A stretch of DNA of 38,640 bases from Spirochaetota bacterium (GTDB taxonomy: Bacteria > Spirochaetota > UBA4802 > UBA5550): contig JAZRYV010000097.1 of the NCBI GenBank assembly GCA_045600925.1, positions 1-38,640 on the forward strand, read 5' to 3'. Position 1 is the stretch's first letter. Every line of letters starts with the position of its first letter. Made by a program: the position numbers and the translations under genes. Below the pieces are notes generated by a model. That model was not told where the DNA came from and searched no databases. It worked only from the letters and a program-made list of their open reading frames with translations. Positions 418-6,871 of this stretch are shown piece by piece.

Positions 418-1560
418 TCAGTTGACCGGACGTTCCTTTACTGTCACGTAAAGGCTTATCTGCTGTCTTTTCCTCCAGACTGTTAATTTTATTTTAGTGC
501 CGGCAGGAATCTGTCCTGCCAGATTAACCGTTTCCCGCACATTCTTTGCCGGGACTCCGTCTATTTCCAGAATCACATCCCCAACCTTAAGTCCGCCTGA
601 ATCAGCAGGACTTCCGGGAGTCACAGAGCCAACCAGAACTCCGCTGCTGCTTTCAAGCCCAAGCTCCTCCGAAGTCTTTCCGGATATGTCCAGAACATTT
701 ATCCCTATGTAGCCTCTCTTTACAGCATGATAATCCCGGAGCTGGGCCAGAACAGTTCGGGCAGTATTTACAGGTACAGCAAAACCTATGCCCATATATC
801 CACCGCTGCTGGAATAGATCATCCTGTTTATGCCGATCACTTCCCCGTATATGTTGATCAGCGGACCGCCGGAATTACCCGGATTTATGGAAGCATCGGT
901 CTGAATATGGGATGAACCTGCCATATCCACATCACTCCTTCCTACTGCACTTACCACACCTACTGTAAAAGTCCTGTCCAGTCCGAAAGGATTTCCAATA
1001 GCAACAGCCCAGTCACCAACCTGAACATTATCAGAATCTCCAAGAAAAACCGGCTGAAGGTTATCAGCATCAATCTTCAGAAGGGCAATATCCGTCTGCC
1101 TGTCCATGCCTACAACAGAAGCCTGATAATTCTTTTCCTGAACTTCAACAAAAATTCTGTCCATGCCGTCCACAACATGGAAATTTGTGCAGATGTATCC
1201 GTCCTTTGAAAGCACAAAGCCAGAACCAAGACCTGTCCTTGTTTCCACTTTGGAACCGTCCCCGCTGAGTCCGAAAAACTGACGCAGCAGCGGATCACTG
1301 TAAAAAGGATGCCCCTTAACTCTTACAGTCTGTTCTGTAGTTATATATACAACCCTGTCCCTGTAAAGATCATATATTTTACGGAATGAATTCTGAATCT
1401 CACAGGCTCTGTCCGCATCACCGCTGTCCCTGAGAGGAGAGACCTCCTGATTTCCAAAAAGAGATGCAGAGGCTCTTCCTGTTCCTGAACAGGACTGAAG
1501 CATAATAAAAACCAGCACTGCAAGAACAGCTCCAGCAGCTAATATTCCGCCCTTTTTCAT
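418..1560 (-). CDS. htrA: HtrA/DegP-family periplasmic serine protease with one PDZ domain, probable lipoprotein
   Basis: Track ORF 418-1668 was trimmed to the ATG at 1558-1560. That start gives MKKGGILAAGAVLAVLVFIMLQSCSG, a signal peptide with a lipobox-like LQSC, and it abuts the upstream stop at 1562-1564. The catalytic triad motifs are TNFHVV (His), DIALLKI (Asp) and GNSGGPL (Ser). The C-terminus is PDZ-like (GVLVGSVTPGSPADSGGLKVGDVILEIDG). An alternative ATG lies at 1572. Confidence 0.88.
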   Translation of the reverse strand: MKKGGILAAGAVLAVLVFIMLQSCSGTGRASASLFGNQEVSPLRDSGDADRACEIQNSFRKIYDLYRDRVVYITTEQTVRVKGHPFYSDPLLRQFFGLSGDGSKVETRTGLGSGFVLSKDGYICTNFHVVDGMDRIFVEVQEKNYQASVVGMDRQTDIALLKIDADNLQPVFLGDSDNVQVGDWAVAIGNPFGLDRTFTVGVVSAVGRSDVDMAGSSHIQTDASINPGNSGGPLINIYGEVIGINRMIYSSSGGYMGIGFAVPVNTARTVLAQLRDYHAVKRGYIGINVLDISGKTSEELGLESSSGVLVGSVTPGSPADSGGLKVGDVILEIDGVPAKNVRETVNLAGQIPAGTKIKLTVWRKRQQISLYVTVKERPVN

Positions 1561-1561
1561 T

Positions 1562-1834
1562 TTAAAAACCATCCCTGTCCCGTGCTTCCTTTTTTCGTCT
1601 GTCTTTATCAAGAAATTCCCTGAACAGTTCCTTTTCATTAAGCGTGCCGTCCGGATTGATATATTCAAAATCCAGCTTATTAGGATCAGGCACTGTCTCC
1701 CTGCAGAATTTTACAACGTAGTATACACCTATAACCAGAGCGAAAAGGACACAGAGCTGGACCACAGAAATTATCAGCTTTCTGCGGTCCATCTTCTTAA
1801 TGTATTCAAGTACTGCCTTAAGATTCATTGGCAT
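1562..1834 (-). CDS. Small single-pass membrane protein (90 aa), unknown function
   Basis: Track ORF wedged between the trxA stop (1839) and the htrA start (1560). It has one hydrophobic helix (LIISVVQLCVLFALVIGVYYVV) and a charged C-terminal tail. An alternative ATG lies at 1828. There is no SD and I recognise no family. Confidence 0.45.
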   Translation of the reverse strand: MPMNLKAVLEYIKKMDRRKLIISVVQLCVLFALVIGVYYVVKFCRETVPDPNKLDFEYINPDGTLNEKELFREFLDKDRRKKEARDRDGF

Positions 1835-1838
1835 CTGA

Positions 1839-2150
1839 TCAGGCCAGCTTTACCTTCAGGGAATCCTCAGTCTGAAGGCCCACCATACGCTCTATCTCCT
1901 TTCCGTCTTTAAAAAGAATCAGCGTTGGAATGGATGATATTCCAAGATCTGCTGCCAGTTCCCTGGCTTCATCTGTATTAACTTTGGCAATTCTGCCGGA
2001 AATCTGACCTCCTTCTGCCAGTCTTTCAAGAATAGGGCTCTGCATACGGCATGGTCCGCACCATGGAGCCCAGAAATCAACCAGCACAAGGCCTTCTGCT
2101 GTTTCTGCGGCAAAATTATCTTTATTAAGATCTGCTATTTTCCCTGACAT
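1839..2150 (-). CDS. trxA: Thioredoxin
   Basis: 103 aa with the canonical WCGPC active site in VDFWAPWCGPCRM and PTLILFKDG (cis-Pro loop). A strong SD (AGGAGG) lies about 6 nt upstream of the ATG. Confidence 0.93.
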   Translation of the reverse strand: MSGKIADLNKDNFAAETAEGLVLVDFWAPWCGPCRMQSPILERLAEGGQISGRIAKVNTDEARELAADLGISSIPTLILFKDGKEIERMVGLQTEDSLKVKLA

Positions 2151-2353
2151 AATATCCTCCTTTATATAATGTTTCAGTTAAAGAAAACCGGCCTCTCCGT
2201 CAAACATTAATTGCCTGTTTTCTGCAGTCCGGTTCAGGAATCCGGTATGAAAAATTTCTGTATTCCGTCAGAACCTGTCCGATAATATAAAGGGGTTCTT
2301 TTACAGAAACGTATTGAACTTCAGCAGAAAATAACGGAAATCCGAGGTCATAA

Positions 2354-2941
2354 ATGAAAAAACTCATACTTCCTGCAGTGCTTCTGTGTACGGCAGCTCT
2401 CTTTGCCGAAGAAACAAAAACTCCTGTCCCGGAAGGATACGGGAATCTTACCTGGGGTACATACATAAGCGATGCAAAGGATAAGACAGAAGGCAGACTC
2501 TACTATTCTGATGATAAAAAGATCATCATCACCCGTAATGAAGAACTGGAATACCAGTACGGCTTTTTCTACATGGATCCGGCCAAAATGCCTGTCCGTG
2601 AAAATACAGAGGCAGAAAAGGATTCCGGAAATATAAAGGATGAAGGGAAACTCTTCTACGTTTCACTGAAATTTCCATATCTTACCATGGAAAGCGTAAA
2701 AACAAAACTGACAGACAAATACGGAGAGCCTTCTTTCGAGGATATAAACAAAAACCGCGGAGCCCTTGCCTGGACTTCAGATAAAACCATGATTATTATG
2801 TGGGTGGATGAATACGAGAAAAAGCCCTTCTGCCGTAAAATCAACTACATCAGCCGTGATACGGTAAAAGAGCTTAATCAGTACGTATATACCATGTTCA
2901 ACAGACAGGAGCTGGATATAATAAAAAGACTCAACCCCTGA
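2354..2941 (+). CDS. Secreted protein of unknown family (195 aa)
   Basis: ATG preceded by a GAGG SD. The N-terminus [20 protein letters not shown] looks like a type I signal peptide. I see no recognisable catalytic or domain motifs. Its stop codon (2939-2941) directly abuts the stop of the convergent giant ORF (2942-2944). Confidence 0.6.
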   Translation: MKKLILPAVLLCTAALFAEETKTPVPEGYGNLTWGTYISDAKDKTEGRLYYSDDKKIIITRNEELEYQYGFFYMDPAKMPVRENTEAEKDSGNIKDEGKLFYVSLKFPYLTMESVKTKLTDKYGEPSFEDINKNRGALAWTSDKTMIIMWVDEYEKKPFCRKINYISRDTVKELNQYVYTMFNRQELDIIKRLNP

Positions 2942-5900
2942 TTATCTGGTTACAAAGACAGGAATAAGTGCAATACCGTCAGACAGACCGTCCAGAGCCT
3001 TTCCCACAACTGTTCCTGTCTTTTCAAAAGAATCTATCTTCCCAGCCATCCCGCAGCCCGGAGTATCAGATGAAACAATAAGATCCCCTGGTTTAACTGA
3101 CTGCTTTCTGGCATCAACTCTGCACATTACAGTTCCGCACAGTGCAACCGGATACAGTTTTTCACTTTTTCCTGTATTATTGAAGACAGCCAAAGGATTT
3201 CCGGAAACTATTCCGATTACGGAACTGTCATAGGCTTTTCTGGATCTGGACAAAACAGATTTTCCGGCAGGAGATACAGTCAGAAGATCCCCTTCTGCAA
3301 TAAACTCAGCATCATCAGCAGCAAACAGCTCAGTAATGCCTCCCGGAACTGCAGTTTTTTCCGATTCAAAAGAAAGAGTCCCTTTAAAAAACGAACGGCC
3401 GTTTACCAGAAGGGCATTGCCCTCTCCTTTAAGACGGACAGAATCATCATACCTTTCCACATCGCCGTAGCCGTCAGCCACAACTGAAAAGCCGTGTTCG
3501 CTTACAAAAACTCCTCCTGCACCAAAACGGGAAATTCCCATAACTCCGCAGCCTGAACCGCTGCCGGAATCACCTGCTGCCTGTCCCCTTACACCCACAT
3601 GAGTACTGTGCCCAACTACTCCGTAACTGGATGCTGACGGATACTTCTGATCACCGCTGATTCCTGCAAGACCAATGGATCCGTTCTCCGGAGATGTATT
3701 CCGTCCATATATTACTGCCGAATCAGAAGAAGGAGGCGTCACTTCTCTGAAAACTTCATTCTTTGCTTCTGTAACAGAAATATCGCCGAAATGGCTGTTA
3801 AAACTGTGCTTTTCAGGAGCATATGGATGTTCATGAGGAAGAGCCTCCCTTGCATCCGACAGTCTCGGATCAGAGGCCTGAACAACAAAACCAGGACGGG
3901 TCTCACCTTCACCGGCAAGTCTTACAATGCCCGGATTATCATGATCTGCCATCTTAAGACGTCTGTCGTTTCCCTGAACTGCTGTTCCCGGAGTAGTCTC
4001 CCCGTCATCAGCCAGCTCAACTATTCCCTTTGCGGAAACTGTTGCATCCTTAAGACGCCTGTCATTACCCTGAACTGCTGTATTTCCAAGGACTTCACCG
4101 TCTGAAGCAAAACGCATAATTCCCGGAGTCTGTTCCGTAGCCTTTTTCAGCCGGCTGTCATTTCCCTGAACCGCTGCCCCGGCCTTGTCCTCACCATCGC
4201 AGGCAAACCGGACAATTCCAGGATCAGCCTCTGTTGCCTTTCTCAGACGCCTGTCGTTTCCCTGAACTGCGGCATCTGCTTTATCTTCACCGTCAGCAGC
4301 AAGACGGACAATTCCCTTTGAATATACAGACGCATCCTTAAGTCGTTTATCACTGCCCTGAACTGCTGTTCCGCTTTCAGTTTCCCCATCCTTTGCAAAA
4401 CGTACAATCCCCATCCTGACTTCGGTTCCGTCCAGAAGACGTCTGTCATTTCCCTGAACTGCCACTCCGGCACTGTCTTCCCCATTGCGTGCAAGACGGA
4501 CAATTCCTCTGTCAGACTCTGTTGCATCTTTAAGACGCCTGTCGTTTCCCTGAACTGCTGCATCAGCCTTATCTTCACCGTCAGCAGCAAGACGGACAAT
4601 TCCCCTGTCAGACTCAGTTGCATTCCGCAGACGCCTGTCATTTCCCTGAACTGCTGCTCCGGCCTTAACCTCGCCGTCTTCCGCCAGTTCCACAATCCCT
4701 TTTGACAGTGTGGTTGCATCCATAAGACGTTTATCGTTTCCCTGAACTGCAGCCCCTTCAGCATTTTCTCCGTCCAAAGCCAGACGAACTATTCCCTTTA
4801 CAGAAACAGAAGCATCCCTGAGACGTCTGTCATTTCCCTGAACTGCTGCTCCGGAACTGTTTTCTCCGTCTTCAGCAAGGCGTACGATACCGAAACTTCC
4901 GACAGTAGCCTTTTTCAGCCGGGAATCGTTTCCTGTAACAACAGCTCTGGAAGAACTGGCTCCGTCCTCACACAGGCGGACAATCCCGGGTGTTCCGGTT
5001 TCTGCTTCCTTAAGCCTTGAATCATTTCCCTGAACAGCTGTTCCCTTTCCGGTTCCGTTATCACCTGCAAGAATCACAATCCCCGGCTTCAGCTCCGTGG
5101 CAGGCTTAAGTCTTGGATCCGAAGCCTGAACAGCAAGTCCTTCGGAACTGTCCCCGTCTGCAGCAAAACGTGTAATTCCTTTAAAAACAGTAGATGCATC
5201 CCCAAGCCTGGAATCATTTCCCTGAACAGCAGCACCTGCCTCATTCTCCCCGTCCCTGGCCAGTTTTACAATTCCCGGAACAAAAACAGAAGCCGAAGGC
5301 ATAGCCTTATCTTTTCCAGGGACGCAAATATCAGCACATATATCCATTCCGGCAAGATACAGTCCGTACTGTCCGTTTTTCAGCTGTGGAGTTCTGGCAG
5401 CAAGACGTATGTATCTGGCAGACACAAGGGCCGTATCCCAGTAATATGATTCTCCTGGCTGTGCCCTGAATCCCTGGACATCAATAAGCGATGTCCACAG
5501 GTCACTGTCCGTGCTGACCTCAATATGAAAGTTTTCCGGGAACCCGTCATCTCCGGAAGAAAGAATCATACGGCTTATCATAAAAGACTGCCCCATGTCG
5601 GCAAAAATTACATGCTCGGAAGGAAGAAATTCCGTAACAGAGGACCATCCCTTTCCTTCCAGAAGACCTGCAGCTGAAGCCCCATCCTGTCCTGTCCAGC
5701 ACTTCTGTGCACCGGAAATTCCTGTTCTCAGAGAACCTACCTGAGAAAAATATCCATTCTCCGAAGCACCCGGATCATTTATGACAAGCTTCATATACCG
5801 GAAAACAGCAAGAGGGAAAAGAAGCTGCCAGACCTTACTTTCCGGCTCGCAGTCTTTCTCCCTGTGAACAACTGTCCAGGAAGAGGAATCGGAACTGACC

Positions 5901-6148
5901 TCAATGGCAAAACCTTTCGGGAAGTATTTCCCGGAAGGAGAAATTTCAAGTTCAGCATAATCAGCAGCAATTTCCTTTCCAAAATCAATGACTGCATATT
6001 CAGGAACGGCTTCTTTTCTGTGGGAAGTTTCCCAGTAGCCGCTATTTTTTACAAGACAGGAAGAAGACTGGGCTGTGCCGTGCTCTCCGGAAGATGCTGA
6101 AACTGAACCTGTATAAAAAAACTGTTTACTGATAACTGTATAATTCAT
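2942..6148 (-). CDS. 1068-aa fibre-like repeat protein with two discoidin (F5/8 type C)-like domains, 15 x 32-aa tail-fibre-like repeats and a Gly-rich C-terminal knob
   Basis: ATG at 6146-6148 with a GGAG SD 5 nt upstream; the reading frame is open for 3.2 kb. Residues about 28-125 and about 165-255 read as discoidin-like (AVIDFGKEI...FAIEVSSDSSSW; VIFADMGQSF...FHIEVSTDSDLW). Residues 286-765 are 15 units with consensus AT....GIVRLA.DGE...G.AVQGNDRRLKD. Residues 815-935 are a Gly/Val/Ser-rich segment. Residues about 938-1068 form a compact C-terminal module. The N-terminus MNYTVISKQFFYTGS has no signal peptide or lipobox. Confidence 0.85.
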   Translation of the reverse strand: MNYTVISKQFFYTGSVSASSGEHGTAQSSSCLVKNSGYWETSHRKEAVPEYAVIDFGKEIAADYAELEISPSGKYFPKGFAIEVSSDSSSWTVVHREKDCEPESKVWQLLFPLAVFRYMKLVINDPGASENGYFSQVGSLRTGISGAQKCWTGQDGASAAGLLEGKGWSSVTEFLPSEHVIFADMGQSFMISRMILSSGDDGFPENFHIEVSTDSDLWTSLIDVQGFRAQPGESYYWDTALVSARYIRLAARTPQLKNGQYGLYLAGMDICADICVPGKDKAMPSASVFVPGIVKLARDGENEAGAAVQGNDSRLGDASTVFKGITRFAADGDSSEGLAVQASDPRLKPATELKPGIVILAGDNGTGKGTAVQGNDSRLKEAETGTPGIVRLCEDGASSSRAVVTGNDSRLKKATVGSFGIVRLAEDGENSSGAAVQGNDRRLRDASVSVKGIVRLALDGENAEGAAVQGNDKRLMDATTLSKGIVELAEDGEVKAGAAVQGNDRRLRNATESDRGIVRLAADGEDKADAAVQGNDRRLKDATESDRGIVRLARNGEDSAGVAVQGNDRRLLDGTEVRMGIVRFAKDGETESGTAVQGSDKRLKDASVYSKGIVRLAADGEDKADAAVQGNDRRLRKATEADPGIVRFACDGEDKAGAAVQGNDSRLKKATEQTPGIMRFASDGEVLGNTAVQGNDRRLKDATVSAKGIVELADDGETTPGTAVQGNDRRLKMADHDNPGIVRLAGEGETRPGFVVQASDPRLSDAREALPHEHPYAPEKHSFNSHFGDISVTEAKNEVFREVTPPSSDSAVIYGRNTSPENGSIGLAGISGDQKYPSASSYGVVGHSTHVGVRGQAAGDSGSGSGCGVMGISRFGAGGVFVSEHGFSVVADGYGDVERYDDSVRLKGEGNALLVNGRSFFKGTLSFESEKTAVPGGITELFAADDAEFIAEGDLLTVSPAGKSVLSRSRKAYDSSVIGIVSGNPLAVFNNTGKSEKLYPVALCGTVMCRVDARKQSVKPGDLIVSSDTPGCGMAGKIDSFEKTGTVVGKALDGLSDGIALIPVFVTR
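3854..5293 (-). repeat. In-frame tandem repeat array, 15 units of exactly 96 bp (32 aa), inside the giant ORF
   Basis: I counted the units from the translation. Unit k spans 5293-96(k-1) down 96 nt. Boundary codons were checked against the DNA: GCT for Ala286 at 5291-5293 and GAT for Asp765 at 3854-3856. The DNA core recurs as gtc(a/g)tttccctgaac(t/c)gc. Units 8 and 11 share a 36-nt identical block (4569-4604 and 4281-4316, offset 288 = 3 x 96). Confidence 0.9.
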
Positions 6149-6172: not shown

Positions 6173-6694
6173 TCATTTTTTCTTCAGTTTAAGAACAGGC
6201 TCAAGATAGCCTTCGGAACTGCTTCCGTCAATAACAGTCTGAACAGGACGTACTGTAAGCTTACGGTCCTTTCCTTCTCCGGAAACAGCACACTTCATAA
6301 GAAACCAGGAAGATTTTGCCTTAACAAAACCTCCGGAAGTGCTGACATTCCTGACTTTACTGCTTCTTTTCATATCACTGACATTTACCCGGAGCCTGTT
6401 TCCGTCTTCCAGTATATATATACCTTTAAACAGAAGGGCATGATTTCCAAGATAAAGAATAATCACAGCACGGTAGTTTTTATAAAAACGAAACTCGTAG
6501 CCCAGACTGTGGCCGTAATCAAGCACCCATATTCCGGCAAGATCCGCTGCAGTCAGGGGAGAAGCAGGTTCCTCCGGAGCAGGGATCTGTACTTCCTTAG
6601 ACATGTCAGGACTGCTGTCCGTATTCAGGCTGCTGTCACTGCAGGAAAAAAGACATATCACAGACAGCAGCAGAATTAAAGCTTTTTTCTGCAT
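6173..6694 (-). CDS. Lipoprotein of unknown family (173 aa), immediately upstream of the giant ORF
   Basis: Track ORF 6173-6847 was trimmed to the ATG at 6692-6694, giving MQKKALILLLSVICLFSCSDSS, a textbook lipoprotein signal with lipobox LFSC. Its stop lies 24 nt before the giant-ORF ATG on the same strand. The SD is weak and an alternative ATG lies at 6718. Confidence 0.6.
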   Translation of the reverse strand: MQKKALILLLSVICLFSCSDSSLNTDSSPDMSKEVQIPAPEEPASPLTAADLAGIWVLDYGHSLGYEFRFYKNYRAVIILYLGNHALLFKGIYILEDGNRLRVNVSDMKRSSKVRNVSTSGGFVKAKSSWFLMKCAVSGEGKDRKLTVRPVQTVIDGSSSEGYLEPVLKLKKK

Positions 6695-6871
6695 AACAAA
6701 AATCCAGTATATAATCATAAACAGTCTGTCATCATATTTAATATGTGTCAAATCATTTTGACTGGCCGACTTTCCCCGCCGGAACCAGCCGTTCAGCCTC
6801 TGTAAATTTGCTTTACATTTTTCTTTTCTGTAAAAAATCTGCAGCATAACATAAGAGTATTTACAGGAAAA

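Follow-up and report, generated by a model that had tools for sequence, protein, structure and literature searches.

Why should a gene whose product resembles the tail fibre of a phage lie among the housekeeping genes of a spirochaete? The question is raised by contig JAZRYV010000097.1 of the Spirochaetota assembly GCA_045600925.1, of which positions 1 to 38,640 were analyzed (the whole of this stretch is hereafter called the window). Within it, a complete minus-strand gene encodes a protein of 1068 residues and ∼115 kDa. A first-pass annotation made from the letters alone had singled out this open reading frame as fibre-like and had offered a domesticated adhesin as one reading; the frame was confirmed, and the evidence given below agrees with the word “domesticated”. 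The answer that we favor, and to which we give about an even chance of being right, is that an uncultivated Spirochaetota clade has acquired the gene of a phage-derived fibre as a stable part of its chromosome and passes it on vertically. On this account the protein would be a homotrimer, and its N-terminal lectins would form the ligand-binding end.

From the N- to the C-terminus, the protein consists of two F5/8-type-C (discoidin) domains, fifteen units of 32 residues, a His-rich linker with an HxH motif, a Gly-rich stretch and a compact C-terminal domain (Table 1). All of these parts are of known kinds. What is new is their combination: two N-terminal lectins, a strict 32-residue array of 15–17 units and a non-canonical “beta-tulip” cap, joined in a protein that has no export signal. 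The full length is covered by no characterized family. NCBIfam and PADLOC scans gave zero matches for the fibre protein, a single-sequence search of the PDB returned noise only (MAGE proteins, E ∼0.6), and no published account of the family was found in the literature; a survey of polymorphic toxins that came up there is not concerned with it.

Table 1. Coordinates of the fibre gene, its modules and its two immediate neighbors in the window.
Feature	Position	Strand	Basis and remarks
Fibre gene, complete, 1068 aa	2942..6148	minus	open reading frame list; stop codon 2942-2944; full-length homologs at 45-57% identity
Discoidin domain 1, residues 16-125	5774..6103	minus	Pfam F5_F8_type_C PF00754, E 2.9e-15, 57 bits (gathering cut-off 28.2)
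Discoidin domain 2, residues 167-249	5402..5650	minus	Pfam F5_F8_type_C_2 PF22633, E 1.4e-11, 45.3 bits (gathering cut-off 27.8)
Shaft, 15 tandem 32-aa units, residues 284-771	3836..5299	minus	consensus K.AT....GIVRLA.DGE...GAAVQGND.RL; repeat detection and fibre-shaft homology
His-rich linker with HxH motif, PHEHPYAPEKHSFNSH	3749..3835	minus	H772, H774, H781 and H786 invariant in the family alignment
Gly-rich region, residues 801-925	3374..3748	minus	repeated G.G/GV.G motifs; glycines strongly conserved
Tandem beta-barrel (“beta-tulip”) domain, residues 926-1068	2945..3373	minus	AlphaFold2 model, predicted local distance difference test (pLDDT) 90, predicted template-modelling score 0.85
c1, 195-aa secreted orphan protein	2354..2941	plus	convergent, downstream; stop codon abuts the fibre stop codon (2941/2942)
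c8, ∼173-aa lipoprotein	6173..6694	minus	signal and LFSC lipobox; 25 nt upstream of the fibre start, with a GGAG ribosome-binding site between

Fibre and lectin modules of the protein

The shaft was examined unit by unit. The anchor G[IV][VMT].[LF][AC] recurs at residues 292+32n for every n from 0 to 14 with zero insertions or deletions, so that there are 15 units of exactly 32 residues, as had been read from the letters. The units span approximately residues 284 to 763, and conserved residues continue to 771. When the units were aligned, six of the 32 columns were invariant and a further four nearly so, with a mean column identity of 69%; on the DNA, Tandem Repeats Finder reported a period of 96 with 67–75% matches. 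Copies that have drifted this far apart in DNA and in protein indicate an old, diverged array under protein-level selection, rather than a recent amplification or chance.

The likeness of the unit to phage tail-fibre shafts had been put forward in the first-pass annotation and proved correct in three kinds of search. Among the PHROGs, the shaft matched phrog_910 (tail collar fiber protein, E 5.6e-20) and phrog_972 (tail fiber protein proximal subunit, E 8.6e-11). A tblastn search of 50,697 phage genomes found only gp34-type proximal long-tail-fibre subunits, from T4-like phages of the RB16/Cronobacter type, at 27% identity and E-values down to 2e-8. When a profile of the single unit was run against 177,635 PDB sequences, exactly two were matched, 9f4b and 9f4a (E 0.005). 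These are the gp12 short tail fibre and the proximal subunit of the long tail fibre, each with several A[ST]....G.V[RK][LF]A repeats. On viral contigs, the 32-residue unit, including its second half VQGNDSRLSDAR, occurs in one to three copies in large tail-fibre or tailspike reading frames.

On the evidence of sequence, then, homology links the unit with the repeats in the shafts of T4-type gp12 and gp34, with which it has the motif A[ST]....G[IV]V[RK][LF]A...E...G in common. The HxH motif of the spirochaete fibre likewise has counterparts in gp12 and gp37. The differences are also clear: the spirochaete unit is strictly 32 residues long and present in 15–17 copies free of insertions and deletions, whereas phage units vary in length and number; its second half (AVQGND.RL) has no match in T4-type fibres; and the protein has no baseplate-binding N-terminus, nor the gene a surrounding phage genome.

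To model the C-terminal domain, an alignment of relatives of a widespread domain (see below) was supplied to AlphaFold2, which returned a confident structure. Foldseek searches of the PDB with this model gave the best E-values for the phi29 head-fibre base gp8.5-N and for decoration proteins, at 12–17% sequence identity; the latter came from Pam3, Borrelia phage BB1, TW1, T1 and the lambda-like SHP. Phage phi29 gp12 (3suc and 3gqh) was matched with E 2–3e-3 and template-modelling (TM) scores of 0.62–0.66. In BFVD, the model matched the C-termini of long uncultured-phage proteins (E ∼1–2e-12; TM ∼0.8), “preneck appendage” proteins (E ∼1e-10, TM 0.76–0.80) and a Campylobacter phage tail fibre. 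The last 143 residues are thus predicted to have a fold that matches those of three phage structures: the autochaperone of phi29 gp12, the base of the phi29 head fibre, and capsid decoration proteins. This fold trimerizes. In domain D4 of gp12 it serves as the autochaperone for an interdigitated trimer (bioRxiv 10.1101/216911; PMC3357383), and in gp8.5 it is the base by which a trimeric fibre is anchored on a surface (PMC6542822).

Membership of PF11962 (Peptidase_G2) or PF13884 (Peptidase_S74) had been suggested beforehand and did not hold. Neither family matched the full protein or the isolated C-terminal region, for PF11962 even at E≤5, and Pfam and PHROGs gave no match to the isolated C-terminal 297 residues. 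In tblastn against cultured-phage genomes, the domain found nothing better than E 0.2. The link to phi29 gp12 appears only through the fold comparison and through a deeper profile of C-terminal relatives, which aligned to gp12 with E 0.003 beginning at DFAEYFE, the first residues of crystallized fragment D4. Within the D-x-A-E motif of this region, the Glu (E940) is invariant in the spirochaete family, and the Asp position was occupied in 100 scorable relatives by N (57), G (39), S (3) or T (1) and never by D; the window protein reads GGITE here. As neither peptidase family matched and the Asp is never present, the domain was not filed under a self-cleaving peptidase family. It resembles gp12 D4 (Peptidase_G2 in MEROPS and Pfam) in its C-terminal position, its tandem beta-tulip fold and the trimeric beta-structure that appears to precede it, and differs from it in the unmatched PF11962 and the absent Asp. 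It is also among the better conserved parts of the spirochaete fibre, as one would not expect of a pro-domain that is discarded. The phi29 gp8.5 base and the decoration (cement) proteins of lambda gpD type have the same beta-barrel fold; their modules are trimeric and serve to attach a fibre or trimer to a surface lattice. Unlike the spirochaete domain, however, the gp8.5 base is N-terminal and the gpD-type proteins stand alone, and both bind a capsid; no capsid genes are linked to the spirochaete gene.

A search with residues 772–1068 showed that the last ∼130 residues belong to a widespread domain with 11,087 representative clusters (50% identity, E≤1e-3) and no Pfam entry. The domain is almost always C-terminal, in host proteins of 130 to 2262 residues, and caps fibre-like proteins as well as proteins named VgrG of the type VI secretion system, in many phyla including candidate-phyla-radiation bacteria. 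Its motif is ..DxAE.F...PGD....YD..V.GV.S....VAL.G.V.CKVDA...I.PGDLLTTS.TPGHAMKA. The spirochaete proteins are members, distinguished by the signatures NIVE.FEVDD and TPGCGM and by their unique N-terminal combination of two discoidin domains and the 32-residue array. This large family (∼11,000 clusters) is now connected through its fold with the beta-tulip of the phi29 autochaperone and of decoration proteins. Note that D-x-A-E, lost in the spirochaete family, is kept in most members of the widespread domain (among P0127–P0268).

Between shaft and cap lie the His-rich linker and the Gly-rich region. Of 116 relatives, 110 have the HxH motif after the last repeat. Motifs of this type are known from trimeric phage fibres and spikes, where those of the three chains jointly hold Fe or Zn at the threefold axis (PMC6116203), and by analogy the motif of the spirochaete fibre may bind metal. 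A second HxH (HTHN) stands ahead of the first repeat in 102 of the 116. It is missing from the window protein, where residues 271–291 (∼5276–5338; alignment columns 301–320) have a 4-residue deletion at this point. The Gly-rich region is probably an interdigitated trimeric beta-structure, and unrelated proteins (e.g., P0141) have a similar segment ahead of the C-terminal domain. An AlphaFold2 monomer of residues 766–1068, built from a shallow family alignment, had a pLDDT of 48, with residues 766–925 below 50, and was not used for fold searches. Such values over the Gly-rich region are expected if folding needs an intertwined trimer, with which they are compatible without proving it.

At the N-terminus, two discoidin domains had been proposed at approximately residues 28–125 and 165–255, and Pfam places both above the gathering scores with slightly different borders (Table 1). 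Both Pfam families are present in all 120 relatives listed. When the family profile was run against the PDB, the discoidin part matched neuropilin b1b2 and CBM32 structures; for the second domain the matches were CBM32 modules such as 4lks (E 2e-6). By Pfam membership and profile similarity these domains are akin to the CBM32 (F5/8 type C) lectin modules of bacterial glycosidases, from which the fibre differs in having neither a catalytic domain nor a secretion signal and in carrying the modules at its very N-terminus. Judged from these likenesses, the pair most likely recognizes a glycan. The layout is inverted, as the first-pass annotation had pointed out: the lectin pair begins at residue 16, and the protein does not show the combination of N-terminal particle-attachment domain and C-terminal receptor-binding tip by which a phage or tailocin fibre is recognized.

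Distribution and inheritance of the gene

More than 400 full-length relatives of 1050–1120 residues were found. In public records they bear no other names than “discoidin domain-containing protein” and “hypothetical protein”, and the source of every named one is a Spirochaetota metagenome-assembled genome (MAG). The source habitats of the MAGs are groundwater, sediment and digesters. An exact look-up of the window protein itself returned no record among public assemblies. In a scan of one genome per species, relatives occurred in at least 220 stretches; all 80 that were listed are Spirochaetota MAGs or single-cell assemblies, some with contigs of 3–5 Mb. Insertions and deletions in the family alignment involve whole 32-residue units only, and position-specific signatures of individual units are common to different species. 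The commonest in-register run in the family is 16 units, as against 15 in the window protein. The LeuS protein of the window, whose gene was confirmed by its Pfam domains, is 70–76% identical to that of members of the same lineage, such as HGW-Spirochaetae-1, RBG_16_49_21 and ADurb.Bin218, which assigns the window to this uncultivated clade. An identity of ∼70% for LeuS against ∼50% for the fibre in the same MAGs fits vertical descent, with the fibre evolving faster.

A distant relative of 867 residues was found in locus L116 (Logan SRR17886269, gene 1006–3609). It has two discoidin domains, ∼9 units and a C-terminal module with the commoner TAGHAM signature, and lies among the housekeeping genes adk, rnc, acpP, fabG, plsX, rpmF and che genes. 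The membrane-protein gene upstream of it is unrelated to any neighbor family of the other loci.

These data bear on the view that the gene is functionless for its host, being a leftover now in decay, or else cargo, from a prophage or tailocin just past the window edge. Its modules are of phage type, and its G+C content of 0.48–0.52 (positions 3001–6000) exceeds that of the flanks (0.42–0.44) and of the ribosomal cluster (0.36–0.40). The excess, however, follows from a repeat rich in Gly, Ala, Asp and Arg, so recent transfer need not be indicated. The frame is intact over 1068 codons; full-length orthologs have been kept unit by unit in at least 220 species; and identities of 45–57% among relatives rule out a single, recently spread mobile element. 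Furthermore, the same host genes flank the fibre gene in distant relatives, as in locus L004, where a metallophosphatase, PBP1 and CarD follow beyond htrA. This degree of conservation effectively excludes a remnant, which we consider extremely improbable.

To compare neighborhoods, all open reading frames of 86 related loci were clustered. In the window, the fibre gene is accompanied by an htrA-like gene, trxA, a small exported protein, an EamA permease and leuS, followed by the ribosomal/rpoBC cluster. The rpoA, secY, ribosomal protein, tuf, fusA and rpoBC genes of the window were assigned by reading frame size, order and translated sequence only. Neighbors conserved in many loci, the window included, are c1, trxA, the D-Tyr-tRNA deacylase gene (dtd) and htrA. 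No phage genes were found in the window or in the 86 loci, and the recurrent neighbors have no PHROG match. The housekeeping neighbors and the absent phage context described in the first-pass annotation are thus upheld. That annotation had also named three outcomes that would speak against it, namely full-length homology to a characterized family, an adjoining prophage or tailocin, and a monomeric solenoid unrelated to fibres; none of the three was encountered. Such a housekeeping, clade-wide setting of the fibre gene in Spirochaetota has not been described before.

The chief alternative is that the protein still serves a particle, be it a tailocin, a gene-transfer agent or an extracellular contractile injection system, that has been domesticated and is otherwise encoded elsewhere in the genome. 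It would then be the receptor-binding fibre or head fibre of this particle. It would be put together in the cytoplasm, its conserved C-terminal base would dock on the particle, and lysis would release the product. Release by lysis would explain why no family member has a signal peptide, and all modules but the lectins are of phage structural type. The tandem beta-barrel is the fold of the phi29 head-fibre capsid base and of capsid decoration proteins, and the C-terminal domain also ends VgrG-type spike proteins. There is a precedent for dispersed genes, since those for the fibre and head spike of the Rhodobacter gene-transfer agent are encoded apart from the main cluster. However, in a search made at locus level, no particle gene was found within 10 kb in any locus examined. 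In addition, zero full-length members were found on 2.9 million viral contigs, and the protein has no recognizable baseplate- or collar-attachment domain. We regard a particle fibre as unlikely, with a dead remnant less likely still.

Proposed assembly, orientation and location of the fibre

Mean pairwise identity within the family is lowest in discoidin domain 1 (35%, the least conserved part of the protein) and discoidin domain 2 (38%), rises to 59% in the C-terminal domain and is highest in the shaft (63%). This gradient is the reverse of that of a normal phage fibre. By the usual logic, a variable N-terminus and a conserved C-terminus suggest that the lectin end provides specificity and that the C-terminal end serves assembly or docking.

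In the account that we favor, of a host-fixed fibre, the C-terminal tandem beta-barrel domain would align three chains in the cytoplasm, the role of the autochaperone domain of the same fold in phi29 gp12. The Gly-rich segment and the fifteen gp12/gp34-type units would then zip into a long, thin trimeric shaft, clamped after the repeats by the putative His-x-His metal site and, in most relatives, also by a second such site before them. The variable end, which most likely binds glycan, would be N-terminal and made up of six discoidin (CBM32-like) domains, and the conserved C-terminal end would be used for assembly or docking. The site of action is most likely outside the cytoplasm, where the fibre would bind glycans either in association with the envelope or after release; this is favored by chromosomal fixation, by vertical inheritance and by the two linked neighbors that are exported. 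The fibre may work jointly with these co-inherited exported proteins, c8 and c1, and would have to be exported by a route independent of a Sec signal.

Export was assessed from hydropathy. The highest 19-residue Kyte–Doolittle mean was 1.31 anywhere in the protein and 0.22 in the first ∼50 residues, too low for a signal peptide or a membrane segment. Neither a Sec signal peptide nor a lipobox was present in 116 full-length relatives, in which 12-residue hydropathy in the N-terminal ∼40 residues had a maximum of 1.28 and a median of 0.23. The N-terminus M..INIS is conserved, with no extension, across the family alignment. The missing signal peptide, first seen in the window protein, is therefore a family-wide property. 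In relatives, c10, a ∼130-residue and probably membrane-spanning protein encoded directly ahead of the fibre gene, could bear on the export of a fibre that lacks a signal.

A protein of this kind might never leave the cell. It would then be an intracellular structural or scaffolding fibre, the discoidin ligand being cytoplasmic or at the inner-membrane face. This would agree with the lack of a signal peptide, transmembrane segment or known secretion signal in the 116 relatives, with the folding of phage fibres in the cytoplasm and with HxH metal sites. Discoidin/CBM32 modules are, to our knowledge, extracellular glycan- or lipid-binding modules, however; we know of no precedent for an intracellular discoidin fibre, and both conserved neighbors (c1 and c8) have export signals. 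We judge a cytoplasmic role to be quite improbable, and less likely than a particle fibre.

A bolder form of the host-fixed account is that a captured phage fibre has been turned round. Its C-terminal base would dock to an envelope partner such as c1 or c8, its six N-terminal lectins would point outward, and the folded trimer would leave by an undescribed Sec-independent exit. We offer this version tentatively and think it doubtful.

Several observations weigh against the account of an exported, trimeric, glycan-binding fibre. No signal peptide, transmembrane segment or recognizable secretion signal was found in any relative (n = 116); an extracytoplasmic location is therefore conjectural, and synteny may be all that ties the pair of exported neighbors to the fibre gene. 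The c8 gene adjoins the fibre gene in only 38% of loci, and c1 is convergent and so not co-transcribed with it. The oligomeric state is argued from homology only. Lastly, the sequence match to gp12 D4 is marginal (E 0.003), the PDB fold scores are moderate (TM 0.6), and PF11962 fails to match.

If the account is true, the gene would clearly exemplify how a receptor-binding fibre of viral origin can become fixed in its hosts, here in hundreds of species and with inverted polarity. It would also pose an export problem, in that a ∼115-kDa chain, probably already a trimer in the cytoplasm, would have to leave a diderm cell without a signal peptide, and it would offer a way into the biology of the envelope in a Spirochaetota lineage that is uncultivated.

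Genes adjoining the fibre gene

Because the stop codons of c1 and the fibre gene abut, there is no intergenic room for a terminator, and each transcript must end inside the other gene. Among 63 loci with enough sequence, c1 was convergent within 1.3 kb downstream in 50 and present anywhere in the locus in 58. A profile search gave 168 members of the c1 family, of ∼200 residues; every named one is from a MAG of Spirochaetota or of an unclassified “bacterium”. The locus tags of c1 and the fibre are adjacent in public MAGs.

On the other side, c8 is probably co-transcribed with the fibre gene, and it was the same-strand upstream neighbor in 24 of 64 loci. Note that the listed 224-residue reading frame of c8, starting at 6847, probably has a spurious start; the conserved protein begins at Met 6694 (MQKKALILLLSVICLFSCSD) with a lipoprotein signal. 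For c1 and c8, nothing was found in Pfam, NCBIfam, PHROGs or PADLOC, and no PDB profile match was significant.

Other genomes have, between c8 and the fibre gene, genes for an alpha/beta hydrolase and for a small multi-hydrophobic, probably membrane-spanning protein. They belong to a same-strand string of orphan genes that lies 0.1–4 kb upstream of the fibre gene in L001, L003, L004, L017, L024, L028, L071 and other loci. Flagellar type-III export would have been suggested by a flagellin-like c11, a member of this string; the assignment was dropped when PDB profile and Pfam searches gave generic coiled-coil noise only. The window locus holds only c8 of the string, the full order of which is c11 (∼230 residues, helical), c12 (∼265 residues), c32 (a ∼210-residue lipoprotein), c8, c9 (the alpha/beta hydrolase) and c10.

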